From Candidatus Woesebacteria bacterium RBG_16_42_24 (GTDB lineage: Bacteria > Patescibacteriota > Microgenomatia > UBA8517), in assembly GCA_001792115.1 (NCBI GenBank), contig MGFX01000001.1, positions 5,847-69,846 of the forward strand: a DNA stretch of 64,000 bases, in the 5' to 3' direction. Below the pieces are notes generated by a model that was not told where the DNA came from, ran no database searches, and saw only the letters and a list, made by a program, of their open reading frames with translations. Shown here one piece after another: positions 39,390 to 49,812 of this stretch (its first letter is position 1; each line of letters starts with the position of its first letter). Position numbers and translations under genes: made by a program.

Positions 39390-39518
39390 ACTGTTCTGGC
39401 GATGACCTATTTTCGCGATCCGTTGCCGGATAACTATCGTTGGCGCTGAGGCGTTTTACGTCCCTGTTCGGAATGGGAAAGGGTAGTTCCACCTCGCTAA
39501 AATCACCAGAACGGTGCC
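39390..39518 (-). rRNA. rrf: 5S ribosomal RNA
   Basis: The minus strand reads ..GCACCGTTCTGGTGATTTTAGCGAGGTGGAACTACCCTTTCCCATTCCGAACAGGGACGTAAAACGCCTCAGCGCCAACGATAGT...CATCGCCAGAACAGTGC. Helix I pairs the termini, and the CCGAAC loop-B motif is present. The ends are approximate. Confidence 0.7.
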
Positions 39519-39584
39519 CTCAAATATAATTTGTACTCTCAAAACTGAAGAGAAAAGCCATCTCTCACGCTCCGCGTGAGAATT

Positions 39585-39680
39585 TCCAATTTCCAAATAC
39601 CAAATTCCAAATAAATTCTAAATTTCTAATTTCGAAATTCGAAAATTAAATGGAAACTGGAGACTGGAATCTGGAAACTC
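39585..39680. repeat. AT-rich repeat element in the 23S-5S spacer (AATTTCCAATTTCCAAATACC...AATTCGAA...TGGAGACTGGAA), followed by the hairpin CTCGTGCGAGGCACGAGAG
   Basis: Direct comparison with 23596-23700. Confidence 0.4.
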
Positions 39681-39979
39681 TCGTGCGAGGCACGAGAGAA
39701 TAGTTTTCTTCGACCGATTCGCACAGGTAAGCTTAAACCCTTACGGGTCTTCCACATCCTGCCGATTAACCCCGTCTTCTTCGGGGGGTCTATAACGAGT
39801 CCTAATCTTAGGGGGGGCTTCCCACTTAGATGCTTTCAGCGGTTATCCCTTAGGAACATAGCTACCCGGCGATGCTACTGACGTAACAACCGGCACACCA
39901 GAGGTTCCTCCAGCCTGGTCCTCTCGTACTGAGGCCAGCTCCCTTCAAGACTCGAACGATTCCACCGGATAGAGTCCGA

Positions 39980-46060: not shown

Positions 46061-46071
46061 AATAAGTTTGT

Positions 46072-48207
46072 ATGCATCACCTGACCACACTTCTACTTAA
46101 ACTTCCTCGTAACACCGAAGTTACACCCGAAGCCGCCCAAACTTTTTTGGCGGCCCTCACCCAAATAAACTCCGTGGGTTTTTTGCAAAGACTTTTTGGG
46201 GCCCGTTCCCAAGCTCTTTCCCTGGAAATTGTCCAAATAAACCAGCAAATCCAATTTTTGGTTACTTGCGATACAGCTCTTGTTTCTTTCGTCAAAACCC
46301 AAATTCAATCAAATTATCCATTGGCAATAATTGACGAAATTCCCGATCCACTTGCTACCAACCCAAAACTACATGTTTCCACCCTTAAGTTATCAAAAGG
46401 AAGCTTTTATCCTTTAGCAACCTTTGCCAACTTTACAGACGTTGATCCGCTGGCTTCGGTTCTCTCCGTTCTTGCAAAATCCACCCCCGATGAGCTGGTA
46501 GCCGTCCAATATGCACTCGAATCGGTTAGTCCCTCCTGGCAAACCCAAGGGGCAAACTACGCCGCTTACGGGGCTAAGAAAGAGGACGGCACTTATTCCC
46601 CACGTGAGGACCAAAGTATCATAAAAGAGAAAATTTCTTACCCAGGCTTTGCTGTTTCTCTCCGACTTGCAGCTACTTCGAATGAAACCCTAAGGGAGCT
46701 TGCTTCCGCCTTCGGGGTTTTTACAAGAGCCGACGGGAATTCTTTCTCGACCAAAGGTCGCTCTTTCCTGAGGAAAACTAAACCCTTAATAGATTTTTTG
46801 TCGCGAAAAGTTTCCGGTAATCAAATCATGAACATATTAGAACTTGCCACCGTCTGGCATTTGCCTTCCGAAAAAATAAAAACACCTATGATTGCCTGGG
46901 GTACAAGTGTCCTTTCAGACCCTCCCGAAAACCTTCCTACTTCCTACGGTGCAACGGATGAGGATAAAATGGGCATTAACTTCTTTGGTAAAACACAGTT
47001 CAAAAATAACGAGGTGATCTTCGGAATTAAGGATAAAGACCGCCGCCGCCATCTCTGGAATATTGGAAAAACCGGAACCGGAAAATCGACCCTAATTGCC
47101 AATATGGCAATCGACGATCTTAAAAAAGGACGGGGTCTGGCTGTCATTGACCCCCACGGAGACCTTTGTGAAATAATCCTCGACTATATTCCTCGCGAGC
47201 GGATTAACGACGTCGTCTACTTTAACCCGGCAGATAAGGATTATCCAATTGTAGTAAATCCACTTGAGGTAACCAATAAAGAAGAGGCCGAACTCGTGGT
47301 CTCCGGAATAGTATCGATATTCAATAAAATCTTTGGATTTTCCTGGGGACCCCGACTCGAATATATCTTAAGGACTACCCTTTTAACCCTAGCCGATGTG
47401 CCCAACTCCACCCTAAAAGATGTACCTATGATATTAACAGTTCCCGATTTTAGACGAAGGATAACAGACAAAATCACCGACCCGATCCTTAAGTCTTTCT
47501 GGGTTGACGAGTTTGAGAAAATGCCGCCCAATCTTCAGAAAGAGGCTATCTCCCCTATTCTTAACAAGGTTGGCCAGTTTGTTACCTCACCCCTAATTCG
47601 AACAATCATCGGCCACCCCAAAAGCTCTATCCGTCTAGATGACATCATGAATGAAGGCAAAATCCTACTTGCCAATCTTTCCCAGGGTCGACTGGGAGAG
47701 GATAACGCGGCACTTTTAGGAGCCATGCTTATTACCAAACTTCAGCTTGCCGCGATGCACAGGGTCGATATGCCGGAAGAATCCCGCCGTGACTTTTACC
47801 TCTACGTCGACGAGTTTCAAAACTTTGCAACCGGATCTTTTATTAAAATCATGTCAGAAGCAAGGAAGTACCGACTAGATATAATGCTCGCCAACCAATA
47901 TATGGCCCAGATCCCGGAAGAGGTACAAAAGGCAATACTGGGAAATGCAGGATCTATTATGTCTTTTGCGGTGGGAGCAAGCGATGCTTCAATTCTTTTT
48001 AAGGAATTTGCGGAGGTTTTTTCCGAAACAGACTTGGTGAATCTTTCCAACTACCAGGTAGCCTGTAAATTGACCGTCGACGGCTATTCAACCAGACCCT
48101 TCCTGGCCTATACCCTACCCCTTCCTATCTCCCGAAATCAAAATCGGGACAAGGTCATTCGCGTCTCCCGCGAACGCTGGACAAAAAGAGGTCCCCACAC
48201 TGTTTGA
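46072..48207 (+). CDS. Cytoplasmic P-loop NTPase of the TraD/TraG/VirD4-coupling-protein or HerA (DUF87) type
   Basis: Walker A GKTGTGKST, VIDPHGDL, Walker B FYLYVDEFQNF, LANQYMAQIP. No N-terminal TM segment. Lies antisense within the 16S-23S spacer. Confidence 0.75.
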   Translation: MHHLTTLLLKLPRNTEVTPEAAQTFLAALTQINSVGFLQRLFGARSQALSLEIVQINQQIQFLVTCDTALVSFVKTQIQSNYPLAIIDEIPDPLATNPKLHVSTLKLSKGSFYPLATFANFTDVDPLASVLSVLAKSTPDELVAVQYALESVSPSWQTQGANYAAYGAKKEDGTYSPREDQSIIKEKISYPGFAVSLRLAATSNETLRELASAFGVFTRADGNSFSTKGRSFLRKTKPLIDFLSRKVSGNQIMNILELATVWHLPSEKIKTPMIAWGTSVLSDPPENLPTSYGATDEDKMGINFFGKTQFKNNEVIFGIKDKDRRRHLWNIGKTGTGKSTLIANMAIDDLKKGRGLAVIDPHGDLCEIILDYIPRERINDVVYFNPADKDYPIVVNPLEVTNKEEAELVVSGIVSIFNKIFGFSWGPRLEYILRTTLLTLADVPNSTLKDVPMILTVPDFRRRITDKITDPILKSFWVDEFEKMPPNLQKEAISPILNKVGQFVTSPLIRTIIGHPKSSIRLDDIMNEGKILLANLSQGRLGEDNAALLGAMLITKLQLAAMHRVDMPEESRRDFYLYVDEFQNFATGSFIKIMSEARKYRLDIMLANQYMAQIPEEVQKAILGNAGSIMSFAVGASDASILFKEFAEVFSETDLVNLSNYQVACKLTVDGYSTRPFLAYTLPLPISRNQNRDKVIRVSRERWTKRGPHTV

Positions 48208-48345
48208 CTTCCAAGATATGACCAGAAGCGGATCCCGTTTGATTTACCCTGCTTGAGGATACAGCTCAAACGGCGAACATAAAAACTGGGTGTTGTCACT
48301 CCGCCTAAATATGATATTTTTGGCGGATTCCGTGAGAACTCCTTA

Positions 48346-49812
48346 GAAAGGAGGTGATCCATCCGCACCTTCCAGTACGGATACCTTGTTACGACTTAAT
48401 TCTTGTCGCTGGTTTCAGCTTCCCCCGAAACATTCGAGGTTCGGCTGCCCCCAACTTCACTAACTTGACGGGCGGTGTGTACAAGACCTGAGAACGTATT
48501 CACCGCGGCTTAGCTGATCCGCGATTACTACCAATTCCGCGTTCATGAGGGCGAGTTGCAGCCCTCAATCCCCACTGAGAAGCCGTTTGATGGGATTAGC
48601 TCCGCCTTGCGGCTTGGCAACCCATTGTCGGCTCCATTGTAGCATGTGTGTCGCCCCGGACATAAGGGCCATGCTGACCTGACGTCGTCCCCACTTCCTT
48701 CCGAGAAAAACTCGGAAAGTCCCGTATGAATATTCAACATACGGCAGGGGTTGCGCTCGTTACCCCACTGAAGGGAACACCCCACGGCACGAGCTGACGA
48801 CGGCCATGCAACACCTGTTCTACCTTTCTTAATTGCTTAAGAATCGGTTCGTATTTCTACAATCCTAAAACGGTAGAATGTCAAACCCGGGTAAGGTTCT
48901 TCGGTTCGTCTCGAATTAAACCACATGCTCCACTGGTTGTGCAGGTCCCCGTCAATTCCTTTGAGTTTTAAGCTTGCGCTCGTACTCCCCAGGCGGCTCG
49001 CTTCACGCGTTAGCTTGCACCCGTTTTAAAAAAACGGGTTAGCGAGCAAAGTTTACGGCTAGGACTACAGGGGTCTCTAATCCCTTTCGCTCCCCTAGCT
49101 GTCGTTCCTCAGCGTCAAAAAATTCCTAGTTTTCTGCCTTCGCCCTTGGTGTTCCTCTCGATATCAACGGATTTCACTCCTACACCGAGAGTTCCGAAAA
49201 CCCCGAAATCTTTCAAGTTGGATAGTATTGTCCCCCTTTCCAAGGTTGAGCCCTGGTCTTTGAAGGACAACTTATCCTACAGCCTACGAAACGCTTTACG
49301 CCCAATAAATCCGGATAACGCTTGCATCCTCTGTATTACCGCAGCTGCTGGCACAGAGTTAGCGGATGCTTATTCTACGTAAGGTCTCCCTTACGTCAAA
49401 AGAGGTTTACAACCCGAAGGCCTTCATCCCTCACGCGGCGTCGCGGCGTCAGACTTTCGTCCATTGCGCACGATTCCCGGTTGCTGCCACCCGTAGGTGT
49501 ATAGGCCGTGTCTCAGTCCTATTCTGGGGGGTCACGCTCTCACGTCCCCTACCCGTCGTAGCCTTGGTAGGCCGTTACCCTACCAACAAGCTGATGGGCG
49601 ATAAGCTCCTCCCTCGGTGGACAGTTACGTCCTTTCACCTTGCGGTCTTATGCGGTATTAGCTACTCTTTCGAGTAGGTATTCCCCGCCAAGGGGTAGAT
49701 ACTTATCTTGTACTCAGCCGTTCGCAGCTGACCTCTTGCGAGGCCCGCTCTACTTGCATGCCTAAGGCACGCCGCTAGCGTTCATCCTGGGCCAGGATCA
49801 AACCCTCAAAAA
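48346..49812 (-). rRNA. rrs: 16S ribosomal RNA (about 1467 nt, no large insertions)
   Basis: Plus-strand reverse complements of universal sites: AAGGAGGTGATCCA (3' end, 48348), ACGGGCGGTGTGTAC (48470), CCGTCAATTCCTTTGAGTTT (48950), GGACTACAGGGGTCTCTAATCC (49060), ATTACCGCAGCTGCTGGCAC (49338), CTGGGCCAGGATCAAACCCTC (5' end, 49790-49812). Confidence 0.9.

Follow-up and report, generated by a model that had tools for sequence, protein, structure and literature searches.

Unlinked 16S and 23S rRNA units with candidate switch leaders and a conserved spacer ATPase gene in a Woesebacteria genome

Unlinked rRNA genes are a described feature of Candidate Phyla Radiation (CPR) bacteria. In the arrangement termed type D, 16S and 23S share one strand, are separated by more than 2000 bp and enclose genes of the opposite strand (Lui et al. 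2021, PMC8172020, in the sections on which we draw); the same sections, together with those of Brewer et al. (10.1101/705046), describe the unlinked pattern as clade-specific and homing-endonuclease open reading frames (ORFs) as associated with rRNA genes. Patescibacteria also encode orphan homologues of the type IV coupling protein (T4CP), 5,713 of them in 2,918 genomes with only 148 near virB4, and these VirD4-like proteins are suspected of exaptation (PMC12102498). Here we analysed a stretch of 64,000 nucleotides (nt) from Candidatus Woesebacteria bacterium RBG_16_42_24 (contig MGFX01000001.1), hereafter the window, in which a 16S gene is separated from tRNA-Ala, 23S and 5S by a spacer holding a plus-strand gene for a 711-aa P-loop ATPase. 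The window fits type D: the 16S 3' end (48347) and the 23S 5' end (43638) are 4.7 kb apart, both genes are on the minus strand, the spacer carries plus-strand genes, and an independent promoter is predicted upstream of tRNA-Ala-23S. The separation of 16S from 23S is the normal, already described "unlinked" layout of Woesebacteria. We read the locus, with a probability of roughly 0.78, as this usual layout organised into four autonomous transcription units, with switch leaders preceding the rRNA units.

The identity of the spacer gene, the clade-wide presence of the same ATPase, and the internal promoter with its leader are not reported in the sections of Lui et al. 2021 and Brewer et al. used here. 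The conserved identity of the spacer gene and the bistable leaders appear to be undescribed in the searchable literature, and literature searches turned up no relevant work on riboswitches or on attenuation of rRNA leaders in Patescibacteria. With CPR unlinked rRNA genes and orphan VirD4-like ATPases already known, the locus type is ordinary for its lineage, and showing this prevents its being mistaken for a case of horizontal transfer.

Placement of the rRNA and tRNA genes with Rfam and ARAGORN reproduced the minus-strand order given in an earlier note on this DNA: 16S (48347..49813; RF00177, 1356 bits, full model), tRNA-Ile(GAT) (44593..44665), tRNA-Ala(TGC) (43854..43929), 23S (39710..43638) and 5S (39394..39510). 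The spacer length of 4.7 kb proposed there holds as the distance from 16S to 23S and not as that from 16S to tRNA-Ile, which is 3.7 kb; the 23S gene does not end at about 40785, since it has a second exon and reaches 39710. All three plus-strand ORFs (44986-45369, 45415-45633 and 46072-48207) are in the ORF list, and the strong ribosome-binding site of the second is GGAGG, 9 nt before its ATG. The locally GC (guanine-cytosine)-richer segment was also recovered, at 0.49-0.52 for 44.8-45.6 kb against 0.41-0.45 in the flanks, and a coiled-coil ORF (44218-44009) and a terminator-like hairpin (44362-44341) are both real. A bidirectional hairpin is present as described, at 44834-44857 instead of 44840-44870. 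The coiled-coil gene, here called cc69 (69 aa; 44009..44218, minus strand; from the ORF list and a homologue search), lies between the 23S-unit leader and tRNA-Ala. Its 27 homologues form a lineage-restricted small family with no Pfam match, found directly upstream of tRNA-Ala in many relatives and absent from some.

In the organisation that we propose, the first unit would run from the 16S promoter through a short switch leader and a boxA-like motif into 16S, which would have its own 20-bp processing stem. The second would be the ATPase gene, convergent with 16S, tightly packed against it and provided with its own -10 box. The third would be a tRNA-Ile module with its own extended -10 promoter and an orientation that flips among relatives, and the fourth would lead from a promoter through a leader of ~130 nt, cc69, tRNA-Ala and a boxA-like motif into the intron-bearing 23S and 5S. 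We consider the rRNA genes to be separate units because of the internal promoter, the 16S-only stem, the -10 box of the ATPase gene and the flipped tRNA-Ile. Between separate units and antisense read-through, the two options raised in the earlier note, separate units are favoured, with partial antisense read-in into the ATPase gene plausible.

The predicted promoter of the 23S unit is TTGACT-17-TATACT (44475..44503, minus strand). Among the fetched relative loci and contigs that were compared with the window (designated by L-numbers such as L001 and L004), 25 of 26 relatives have the pattern TTGACN-N17/18-TATAAT upstream of tRNA-Ala-23S, as do 78 of 83 in a larger set. This promoter is followed directly by a leader of ~130 nt that is conserved in 87 loci. 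The candidate switch in the window (44335..44468, minus strand) comprises the 5' strand of a helix, P0 (44466-44457), an AUG at 44453 opening a mini-ORF (44453-44388), and the terminator hairpin (44362-44341) with its U-tract. A leader profile built from 22 copies detected exactly one copy per locus; in a metagenome scan it matched 69 loci, in 52 of which a co-oriented tRNA-Ala was the next RNA gene, and most of the other matches were weak or on truncated contigs. Genomes that do not have cc69 leave 12-37 nt between the leader U-tract and tRNA-Ala and therefore no room for another promoter. All transcription of 23S and 5S would have to pass through this leader.

Two competing folds are predicted for it. 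The terminator hairpin and U-tract are conserved in 83 of the 87 leaders, and the stem shows GC<->AU compensatory changes. In the alternative fold, helix P0 joins the extreme 5' end of the transcript to the 5' arm and loop of the terminator, and helix P1 joins the region from the AUG onward to the 36 nt before the terminator. In alignment-free own-versus-cross duplex tests (n=69), whose permutation ignores phylogeny, the energies with a lineage's own segment and with those of other lineages were -10.9 vs -8.7 kcal/mol for P0 and -10.9 vs -7.6 kcal/mol for P1 (permutation p ~2e-4 for each); the controls yielded p=0.41 and an effect that was small. Co-varying P0 pairs include UUUUGAAGCC/GGCUUCAAAA in the window and L002, AAUUGAAGC/GCUUCAAUU in L004, GAGUCGG/CCGACUC in L009 and UUUUUAAGUUGG/CCGGCUUAAAAA in L026. 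Folding of the nascent transcript gave the same P0-P1-P2 rod for 16 of 18 lineages, with z mostly between -2 and -4.8, and per-clade RNAalifold recovered P0 in four of five clades. RNAalifold on MAFFT alignments of all leaders found the terminator only; column-based pair counts and a covariance model were dropped because the long-range helices were mis-registered between clades. Since the 3' strand of P0 is the terminator's own 5' arm, the predicted terminator and antiterminator folds are mutually exclusive, and the co-variation indicates that both are maintained.

The mini-ORF begins within a conserved motif, UUAAUGARAA, which is predicted to be unpaired in an internal loop and holds an AUG described as invariant; this AUG motif occurs in nearly all leader-profile matches. 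The ORF mostly spans 16-17 or 21-22 codons, and three copies have 9 codons. Its stop lies at a near-constant 22-34 nt before the terminator (40-41 nt for the three 9-codon ORFs), and endings of the form "...LRG*" recur among the peptides. Synonymous changes numbered 44 against 30.8 expected (p=0.006); the frame +2 control had no excess and frame +1 a smaller, untested one. Taken together, the sequence evidence that the mini-ORF is coding is weak.

The strong promoter, the rod-like fold with paired 5' and 3' ends and the canonical terminator would also suit a stand-alone, rod-shaped small RNA (6S-like, for example), and the weak coding signal with recurrent "...LRG*" ends would suit a gene for a 16-22-aa micro-protein, in either case followed by a leaky terminator. 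We regard such an element as improbable. The two exclusive folds are both kept by co-variation, and the leader matches no Rfam family, including 6S and the signal recognition particle (SRP) RNA, the spacer and leaders yielding only spurious miRNA-type matches on long hairpins. The element never stands apart from the rRNA unit, with as few as 12-20 nt left up to tRNA-Ala, and an element of different sequence and the same logic stands before 16S.

This second element follows a promoter-like site, TTGACC-16-TATAAT with a TG extension (50176..50203, minus strand), that matches the consensus at 11 of 12 positions. Homologous GGGCATTGAC..TATnAT sites are found in L004, L014 and L054/55, and the -35 also in L008. 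The putative 16S leader switch (50105..50163, minus strand) consists of a mini-ORF, AUGAGAAAGUGA (50163-50152), an antiterminator strand, CCAGAUG (50151-50145), and a terminator-like hairpin (50129-50112) with a U-tract. In the window and its closer relatives the mini-ORF has 3-4 codons (MRK*, MRKV*, MKKD*, MRKK*). The segment CCAGAUG(C/G)G directly after its stop pairs with the loop and 3' arm of the hairpin, GAGAAAG pairs with the U-tract, and the minimum free energy fold in four of five genomes is an antiterminated rod that excludes the hairpin. When the profile was used to look upstream of 16S for another 23S-type leader, no second copy turned up; judged by sequence, the 16S leader is analogous to that of the 23S unit and not detectably homologous to it.

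The two leaders of the window have the string AUGAGAA(A)G in common (50152-50163 and 44445-44453). Within it, AGAAAG is complementary to the extreme 3' tail (CUUUCU) of the organism's 16S rRNA and, in the 16S leader, also to the terminator U-tract.

Ribosome-mediated attenuators, such as those of trp, his and pyrBI or the antibiotic-responsive leaders of ermC and vmlR, have a short leader ORF and an intrinsic terminator with which an antiterminator helix competes, the choice being set by the position of the ribosome. The 23S-unit leader resembles them in its mini-ORF, terminator and competing antiterminator. It differs in that the controlled genes are rRNA and tRNA genes, not biosynthetic or resistance genes, in that the very first nucleotides of the transcript serve as antiterminator strand, and in its weak coding signal and lack of a Shine-Dalgarno sequence. 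We infer that the leaders act as attenuators. A ribosome initiating on the mini-ORF, or standing at its stop, would cover P1 and the antiterminator strand, and the terminator would then form; abundant idle ribosomes would lower rRNA transcription, amounting to negative feedback from translational capacity. Ribosome occupancy of the mini-ORF is the trigger that we prefer, at somewhat less than even odds. Tentatively, and with rather more doubt than hope, we extend the proposal to both rRNA units: each would be gated co-transcriptionally, in a stop/go fashion, by an undescribed bistable leader RNA that senses ribosome availability or another growth signal, and such direct attenuation control may have enabled the operon to come apart and its spacer to accept genes that are foreign or relocated. 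If the attenuator works, rRNA synthesis in these minimal organisms would be under a mechanism not known for rRNA operons. These CPR organisms, as far as we know, do without many classical regulators.

In rrn antitermination, boxB-boxA-boxC elements act with Nus factors in the leader and the spacer. The window recalls this system in having boxA-like motifs, GCTCTTTGACA and TGTTCTTTGACA, upstream of both 16S and 23S, and differs from it in that these motifs lie downstream of an extra terminator/antiterminator leader; we know of no counterpart of such a leader in the rrn operons of E. coli or B. subtilis. The motif in the 16S leader, GCTCTTTGACAT (49891..49902, minus strand), is also found in L014 and L054/55, and we take it to be boxA-like on the basis of the Nus antitermination consensus. 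The one upstream of 23S, TGTTCTTTGACATC (43677..43690, minus strand), recurs in L001, L008, L023, L025 and L053-55.

Several observations weigh against four autonomous units with switch leaders. Promoters, terminators and switching are all deduced from sequence, and the permutations of the duplex tests take no account of shared ancestry. The nascent-fold z-score of the window itself is only -0.9, and per-clade RNAalifold found few compensatory pairs within clades. Of 13 relatives, no more than 4 have a strict promoter match within 700 nt upstream of 16S, and the hairpin of the 16S leader is limited to the window's closer relatives. On the minus strand downstream of 16S, no intrinsic terminator was detected, and antisense run-in to the ATPase gene is possible. 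As for translation of the 23S-unit mini-ORF, codon-position periodicity is not clear (131/116/136, p=0.43; 117/92/116, p=0.16), its length is not exceptional (median to the first stop 14 codons in frame +2 vs 17 in frame 0), and it is preceded by no canonical Shine-Dalgarno sequence.

The lack of clear periodicity and of a Shine-Dalgarno sequence would be expected if the leader were instead a metabolite riboswitch, or an antitermination element bound by a protein or RNA polymerase, with UUAAUGARAA as an unpaired recognition site and not a start codon; a domain enclosed by P1 and followed by a terminator is also a layout typical of riboswitches. We hold this to be unlikely, though it is the strongest competitor to a translated mini-ORF. 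From clade to clade the central leader domain shows little conservation of either sequence or size, which would be unusual for a ligand pocket, and the 16S version (~55 nt) is too short for most aptamers. The constant spacing from stop to terminator and the mild synonymous excess favour translation.

The separation into units is further suggested by the surroundings of 16S. Duplex prediction and direct reading indicate that the 16S leader strand at 49891-49872 (TCCAAGATATGACTGGAAGC) pairs over ~20 consecutive bp with the trailer strand at 48229-48210, so that 16S has a predicted processing stem of its own (5' strand 49872..49891, 3' strand 48210..48229, both on the minus strand). The trailer strand stops 2 nt short of the ATPase stop codon (48205-48207). 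Because the stem adjoins this stop codon and no intrinsic terminator follows, some convergent overlap of the 16S transcript with the 3' end of the ATPase mRNA seems likely, which would make the locus a natural case of a protein gene converging on, and overlapping with, an rRNA gene of high transcription. A Rho gene lies in the window (23690-25039, minus strand) and is relevant to how the 16S transcript might end inside the antisense ATPase gene.

The missing terminator, together with the boxA-like antitermination motifs, also allows another picture, in which one long pre-rRNA would start at the 16S promoter, cross the ATPase gene in antisense direction and continue into tRNA-Ile, tRNA-Ala, 23S and 5S, with no use made of the internal promoters. 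This is very unlikely in our view. Of 83 lineages, 78 keep a near-consensus internal promoter, a leader-trailer stem encloses 16S by itself, and pairing by the 5' end of the 23S-unit leader makes sense only if transcription starts at the internal promoter; the Rho gene might offer a way to end the 16S transcript. The spacer ranges from 0.5 to 7 kb, varying among relatives in both length and content. In about two thirds of the relatives, tRNA-Ile is antisense to the rRNAs, which argues against a single functional pre-rRNA.

tRNA-Ile, together with its promoter, is inverted between close relatives. In the window it is nested (44533..44739, minus strand): an older tRNA-Ile of the L001/L054 type, with its 5' half at 44739-44705 and its 3' half at 44571-44533, is split in the anticodon loop by an insert of ~135 bp that holds a complete, different and functional tRNA-Ile (44665-44593). 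The inner gene is flanked by perfect 11-bp inverted repeats (44682-44672 and 44584-44574). A C6-to-A change breaks an acceptor pair in the old 5' half, and a 9-bp palindrome marks the 5' break. By sequence, the inner gene appears to use the extended -10 promoter of the old one, TGATAAATT (44751..44759, minus strand), whose counterpart in L001 is TGGTAAATT. We considered whether the half-tRNA copies could be att scars of an ATPase-bearing element and rejected this: they flank only ~135 bp, and there is no integrase.

More generally, across L001-L034 and L057-L175 the orientation of tRNA-Ile relative to the rRNAs has flipped many times among close relatives. The tRNA-Ile copies in the window, L054/55, L022 and L023 are bracketed, 4-8 nt from their ends, by inverted repeats of 11-12 bp with a GAAATTT core; in random flanks such repeats do not exceed 9 bp. 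Partial tRNA copies in inverted orientation are present in L018. Processing helices and inversion sites are both conceivable roles for the repeats.

The spacer ATPase gene (46072..48207, plus strand) had been regarded in the earlier note as part of a foreign-looking insertion into the canonical operon. This does not hold for the ATPase, which is a core CPR gene with its own predicted promoter and occupies the same place in many relatives. With the ATPase as bait we fetched 52 GTDB loci that encode its relatives. Some 30 of these loci, which all belong to Woesebacteria/Microgenomates and whose proteins are 63-94% identical, have the order 5S(-) 23S(-) tRNA-Ala(-) ... tRNA-Ile ... ATPase(+) ... 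16S(-). A metagenome scan with a leader-specific DNA pattern, unbiased as to the ATPase, returned 119 loci. Among those informative upstream of tRNA-Ile, ~19 have the ATPase, and in ~12 contigs 16S lies only 0.55-3 kb from 23S with no ATPase between. Shared spacer content throughout the relatives, which had been put forward as the sign of an ancient arrangement, is thus nearly, but for these ~12 short-spaced contigs, what we found. On a crude 23S tree, ATPase-bearing and ATPase-free loci are interspersed (L070, with the gene, is sister to L068 + L122, without it), which indicates that the gene entered or left the spacer repeatedly, over long timescales. By these comparisons the arrangement is old and widespread, and it is not universal; the same core ATPase across a large clade provides a concrete, datable synteny marker.

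Its position most likely reflects neutral, old synteny rather than functional coupling. The internal promoter and leader are present even at a 16S-23S spacing of 0.55 kb, from which we conclude that the operon was already functionally split; a gene arriving between 16S and tRNA-Ile would then be largely harmless. On either side of the ATPase gene the DNA varies among relatives and holds lineage-specific orphan ORFs (ORFans), as if the spacer were a landing pad where each lineage receives genes of its own. Between ATPase and 16S, L054 (12379-15052) and L053 (3980-5332) have Cys-rich or Pro/Thr-rich, secreted-looking ORFans of 443, 289 and 450 aa, which match no Pfam family and differ between close relatives.

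The idea of an insertion survives for a single segment of ~1.3 kb (44740..46050), which is GC-richer, carries the plus-strand ORFans 44986-45369 and 45415-45633 and the hairpin 44834-44857, and is absent from L001, a 94%-identical relative, and from every fetched locus. The window's orf127, orf72 and orf77 have no counterpart in any fetched locus; no homologue of orf127 was found among 5.8 billion proteins besides its own genome's entry, and orf72 had one weak match in the protein search. As far as such comparisons tell, this segment (44.74-46.05 kb) is the only recently acquired DNA.

That segment, the weak matches of the ATPase to TraD/TrwB/TraG families and the uninterrupted short spacer of some relatives would be in keeping with a recent mobile or conjugative fragment, comprising the ATPase and its neighbour ORFs, that had inserted into a canonical 16S-tRNAIle-tRNAAla-23S operon. 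This explanation is largely refuted and now hardly tenable. At 63-94% identity the ATPase keeps the same position in dozens of genomes, its GC content is ordinary, and its conservation equals or exceeds that of the neighbouring S1-domain protein. Neither the locus nor the large window ORFs tested yielded a relaxase, an integrase or a type IV secretion system (T4SS) partner gene, and the relatives' loci had no relaxase or T4SS genes. Other CPR classes carry the ATPase gene beside that of a Sigma70_r4/HARE-HTH protein, and its predicted promoter is conserved.

This promoter was recognised from a TATAAT box (46058..46063, plus strand) that is conserved in the region upstream and precedes the ATG by 8 nt. 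Of 46 distinct upstream regions, 42 have such a box, which ends 5-20 nt (mostly 6-11) ahead of the ATPase ATG, and 44 boxes fall within 18 positions against 3 in the 54 positions farther upstream. A strict sigma-70 search upstream of the ATPase gave almost no matches until the -35 requirement was dropped. A -10 box this close to the ATG implies, on sequence grounds, that the gene is transcribed from its own promoter as a leaderless or near-leaderless mRNA.

The 711-aa protein is predicted to be a soluble P-loop ATPase with a DUF8128 N-domain followed by a VirB4/VirD4(T4CP)/HerA-type NTPase, as judged from the ORF and from hidden Markov model (HMM) and homologue searches. A hypothetical protein from Candidatus Woesebacteria bacterium RIFCSPLOWO2_01_FULL_43_11 matches it with 100% identity, and it has >7,700 homologues, of which the best 120 all have at least 71% identity, all come from Patescibacteria and carry the precomputed domains DUF8128 + TrwB_AAD_bind + DUF87 + TraG-D_C. 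The motifs GKTGTGKST, VIDPHGD and YVDEFQNF are where the earlier note read them, at residues 332, 358 and 578, and the reported absence of a transmembrane (TM) segment agrees with a maximum of 1.39 in a 19-aa Kyte-Doolittle window. The three families proposed for its classification all match weakly and above their gathering (GA) scores: PF12696 at 30.3 bits (GA 22), PF10412 at 22.7 (GA 20.5) and PF01935 (DUF87) at 25.5 (GA 23.2), the last over residues 315-408 only. All NCBIfam equivalogs scored far under their cut-offs, and the only sequence match to a solved structure is the Walker A region of TrwB (E 1e-5). An AlphaFold2 model was poor (predicted local distance difference test 58.5; NTPase half <50). 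Foldseek matched it best to TrwK/VirB4 (~590-650 columns, E 4e-5, template modelling (TM) score 0.21-0.26), followed by TrwB (E 0.03, TM score ~0.2), a ranking that is only suggestive because the model is poor. The protein is a CPR-specific member of the VirB4/VirD4/HerA ATPase assemblage.

Like T4CPs (VirD4/TraD/TrwB), it is a P-loop NTPase with Walker A/B motifs and matches to the family HMMs; unlike them, the Woesebacteria form has no N-terminal TM anchor, and the window protein has no relaxase or T4SS neighbours within the scope searched. By fold search, from the poor model, it resembles the two-domain VirB4 at least as much as TrwB. No NurA-like neighbour was found in the window ORF list. 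The ATPase probably belongs to the orphan T4CP homologues of PMC12102498: both are widespread chromosomal ATPases with TrwB/TraG/DUF87 signatures, the differences being that no rRNA linkage is mentioned there and that the Woesebacteria form lacks the N-terminal anchor. An N-terminal membrane segment is present in the Saccharibacteria and Parcubacteria homologues (maximum 19-aa Kyte-Doolittle value 2.57 in a Saccharibacteria homologue vs 1.39 in the window ATPase). These homologues sit in an ordinary chromosomal context with no rRNA nearby, and their upstream neighbour always encodes a ~360-aa protein with Sigma70_r4 + HARE-HTH domains (L047 8734-9819, L039 8712-9797, L048 8700-9782). The Parcubacteria homologue comes in two pieces, a membrane part of 420 aa and an NTPase part of 620 aa.

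Intervening sequences that encode LAGLIDADG proteins have been described for rRNA genes of CPR bacteria (Brown et al. 2015, cited in the section of 10.1101/705046 used here), and the 23S gene of the window has one. Exon 1 (43638-40845) is followed by an intervening sequence of ~865 nt (40844-39980) that interrupts the gene near position 2650 of the large-subunit (LSU) rRNA model, and exon 2 (39979-39710) matches LSU model positions 2652-2912 with 233 bits. The exon blocks are contiguous in the intron-less L002, L004, L014 and L015. The intervening sequence holds an ORF for a LAGLIDADG homing endonuclease (40111..40614, minus strand; PF00961, LAGLIDADG_1, 4e-15), with homologues of 62-70% at the same 23S site in L054, L008 and L023. 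We had also considered this ORF as part of the 23S-5S spacer; the exon 2 match and the contiguous exons of relatives place it inside 23S. The likeness to the CPR insertions cited in that section lies in a LAGLIDADG_1 ORF within an insert that is precisely absent from some relatives, and the difference in the group I intron model, RF00028, which scores here only 18.3 bits (E 0.08), below its gathering score of 50.

Two long, near-perfect hairpins flank 23S, one after tRNA-Ala (43692-43784, ~90 nt) and one before 5S (39551-39709, ~160 nt). Both give spurious plant-miRNA matches in Rfam, and the upstream one is absent from L001; they may be insertions resembling miniature inverted-repeat transposable elements, or processing stems.

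A tRNA-Glu/Lys/Gln cluster (53904-54649) lies a few kb upstream of 16S and is kept near 16S, sometimes inverted, in L004, L023, L029 and L054. The gene for the S1-domain protein downstream of 5S (37888-38985) is also syntenic. Farther along the window, an intein that has a LAGLIDADG_3 endonuclease domain interrupts a RadA/Sms-like gene (34553-37135, minus strand; Zn ribbon, KaiC/AAA_25), and a 1946-aa ORF (15355-21195, minus strand) joins N-terminal helix-turn-helix domains of transposase type (HTH_28, HTH_23 and HTH_Tnp_1) to family-2 glycosyltransferase domains in an unusual fusion.

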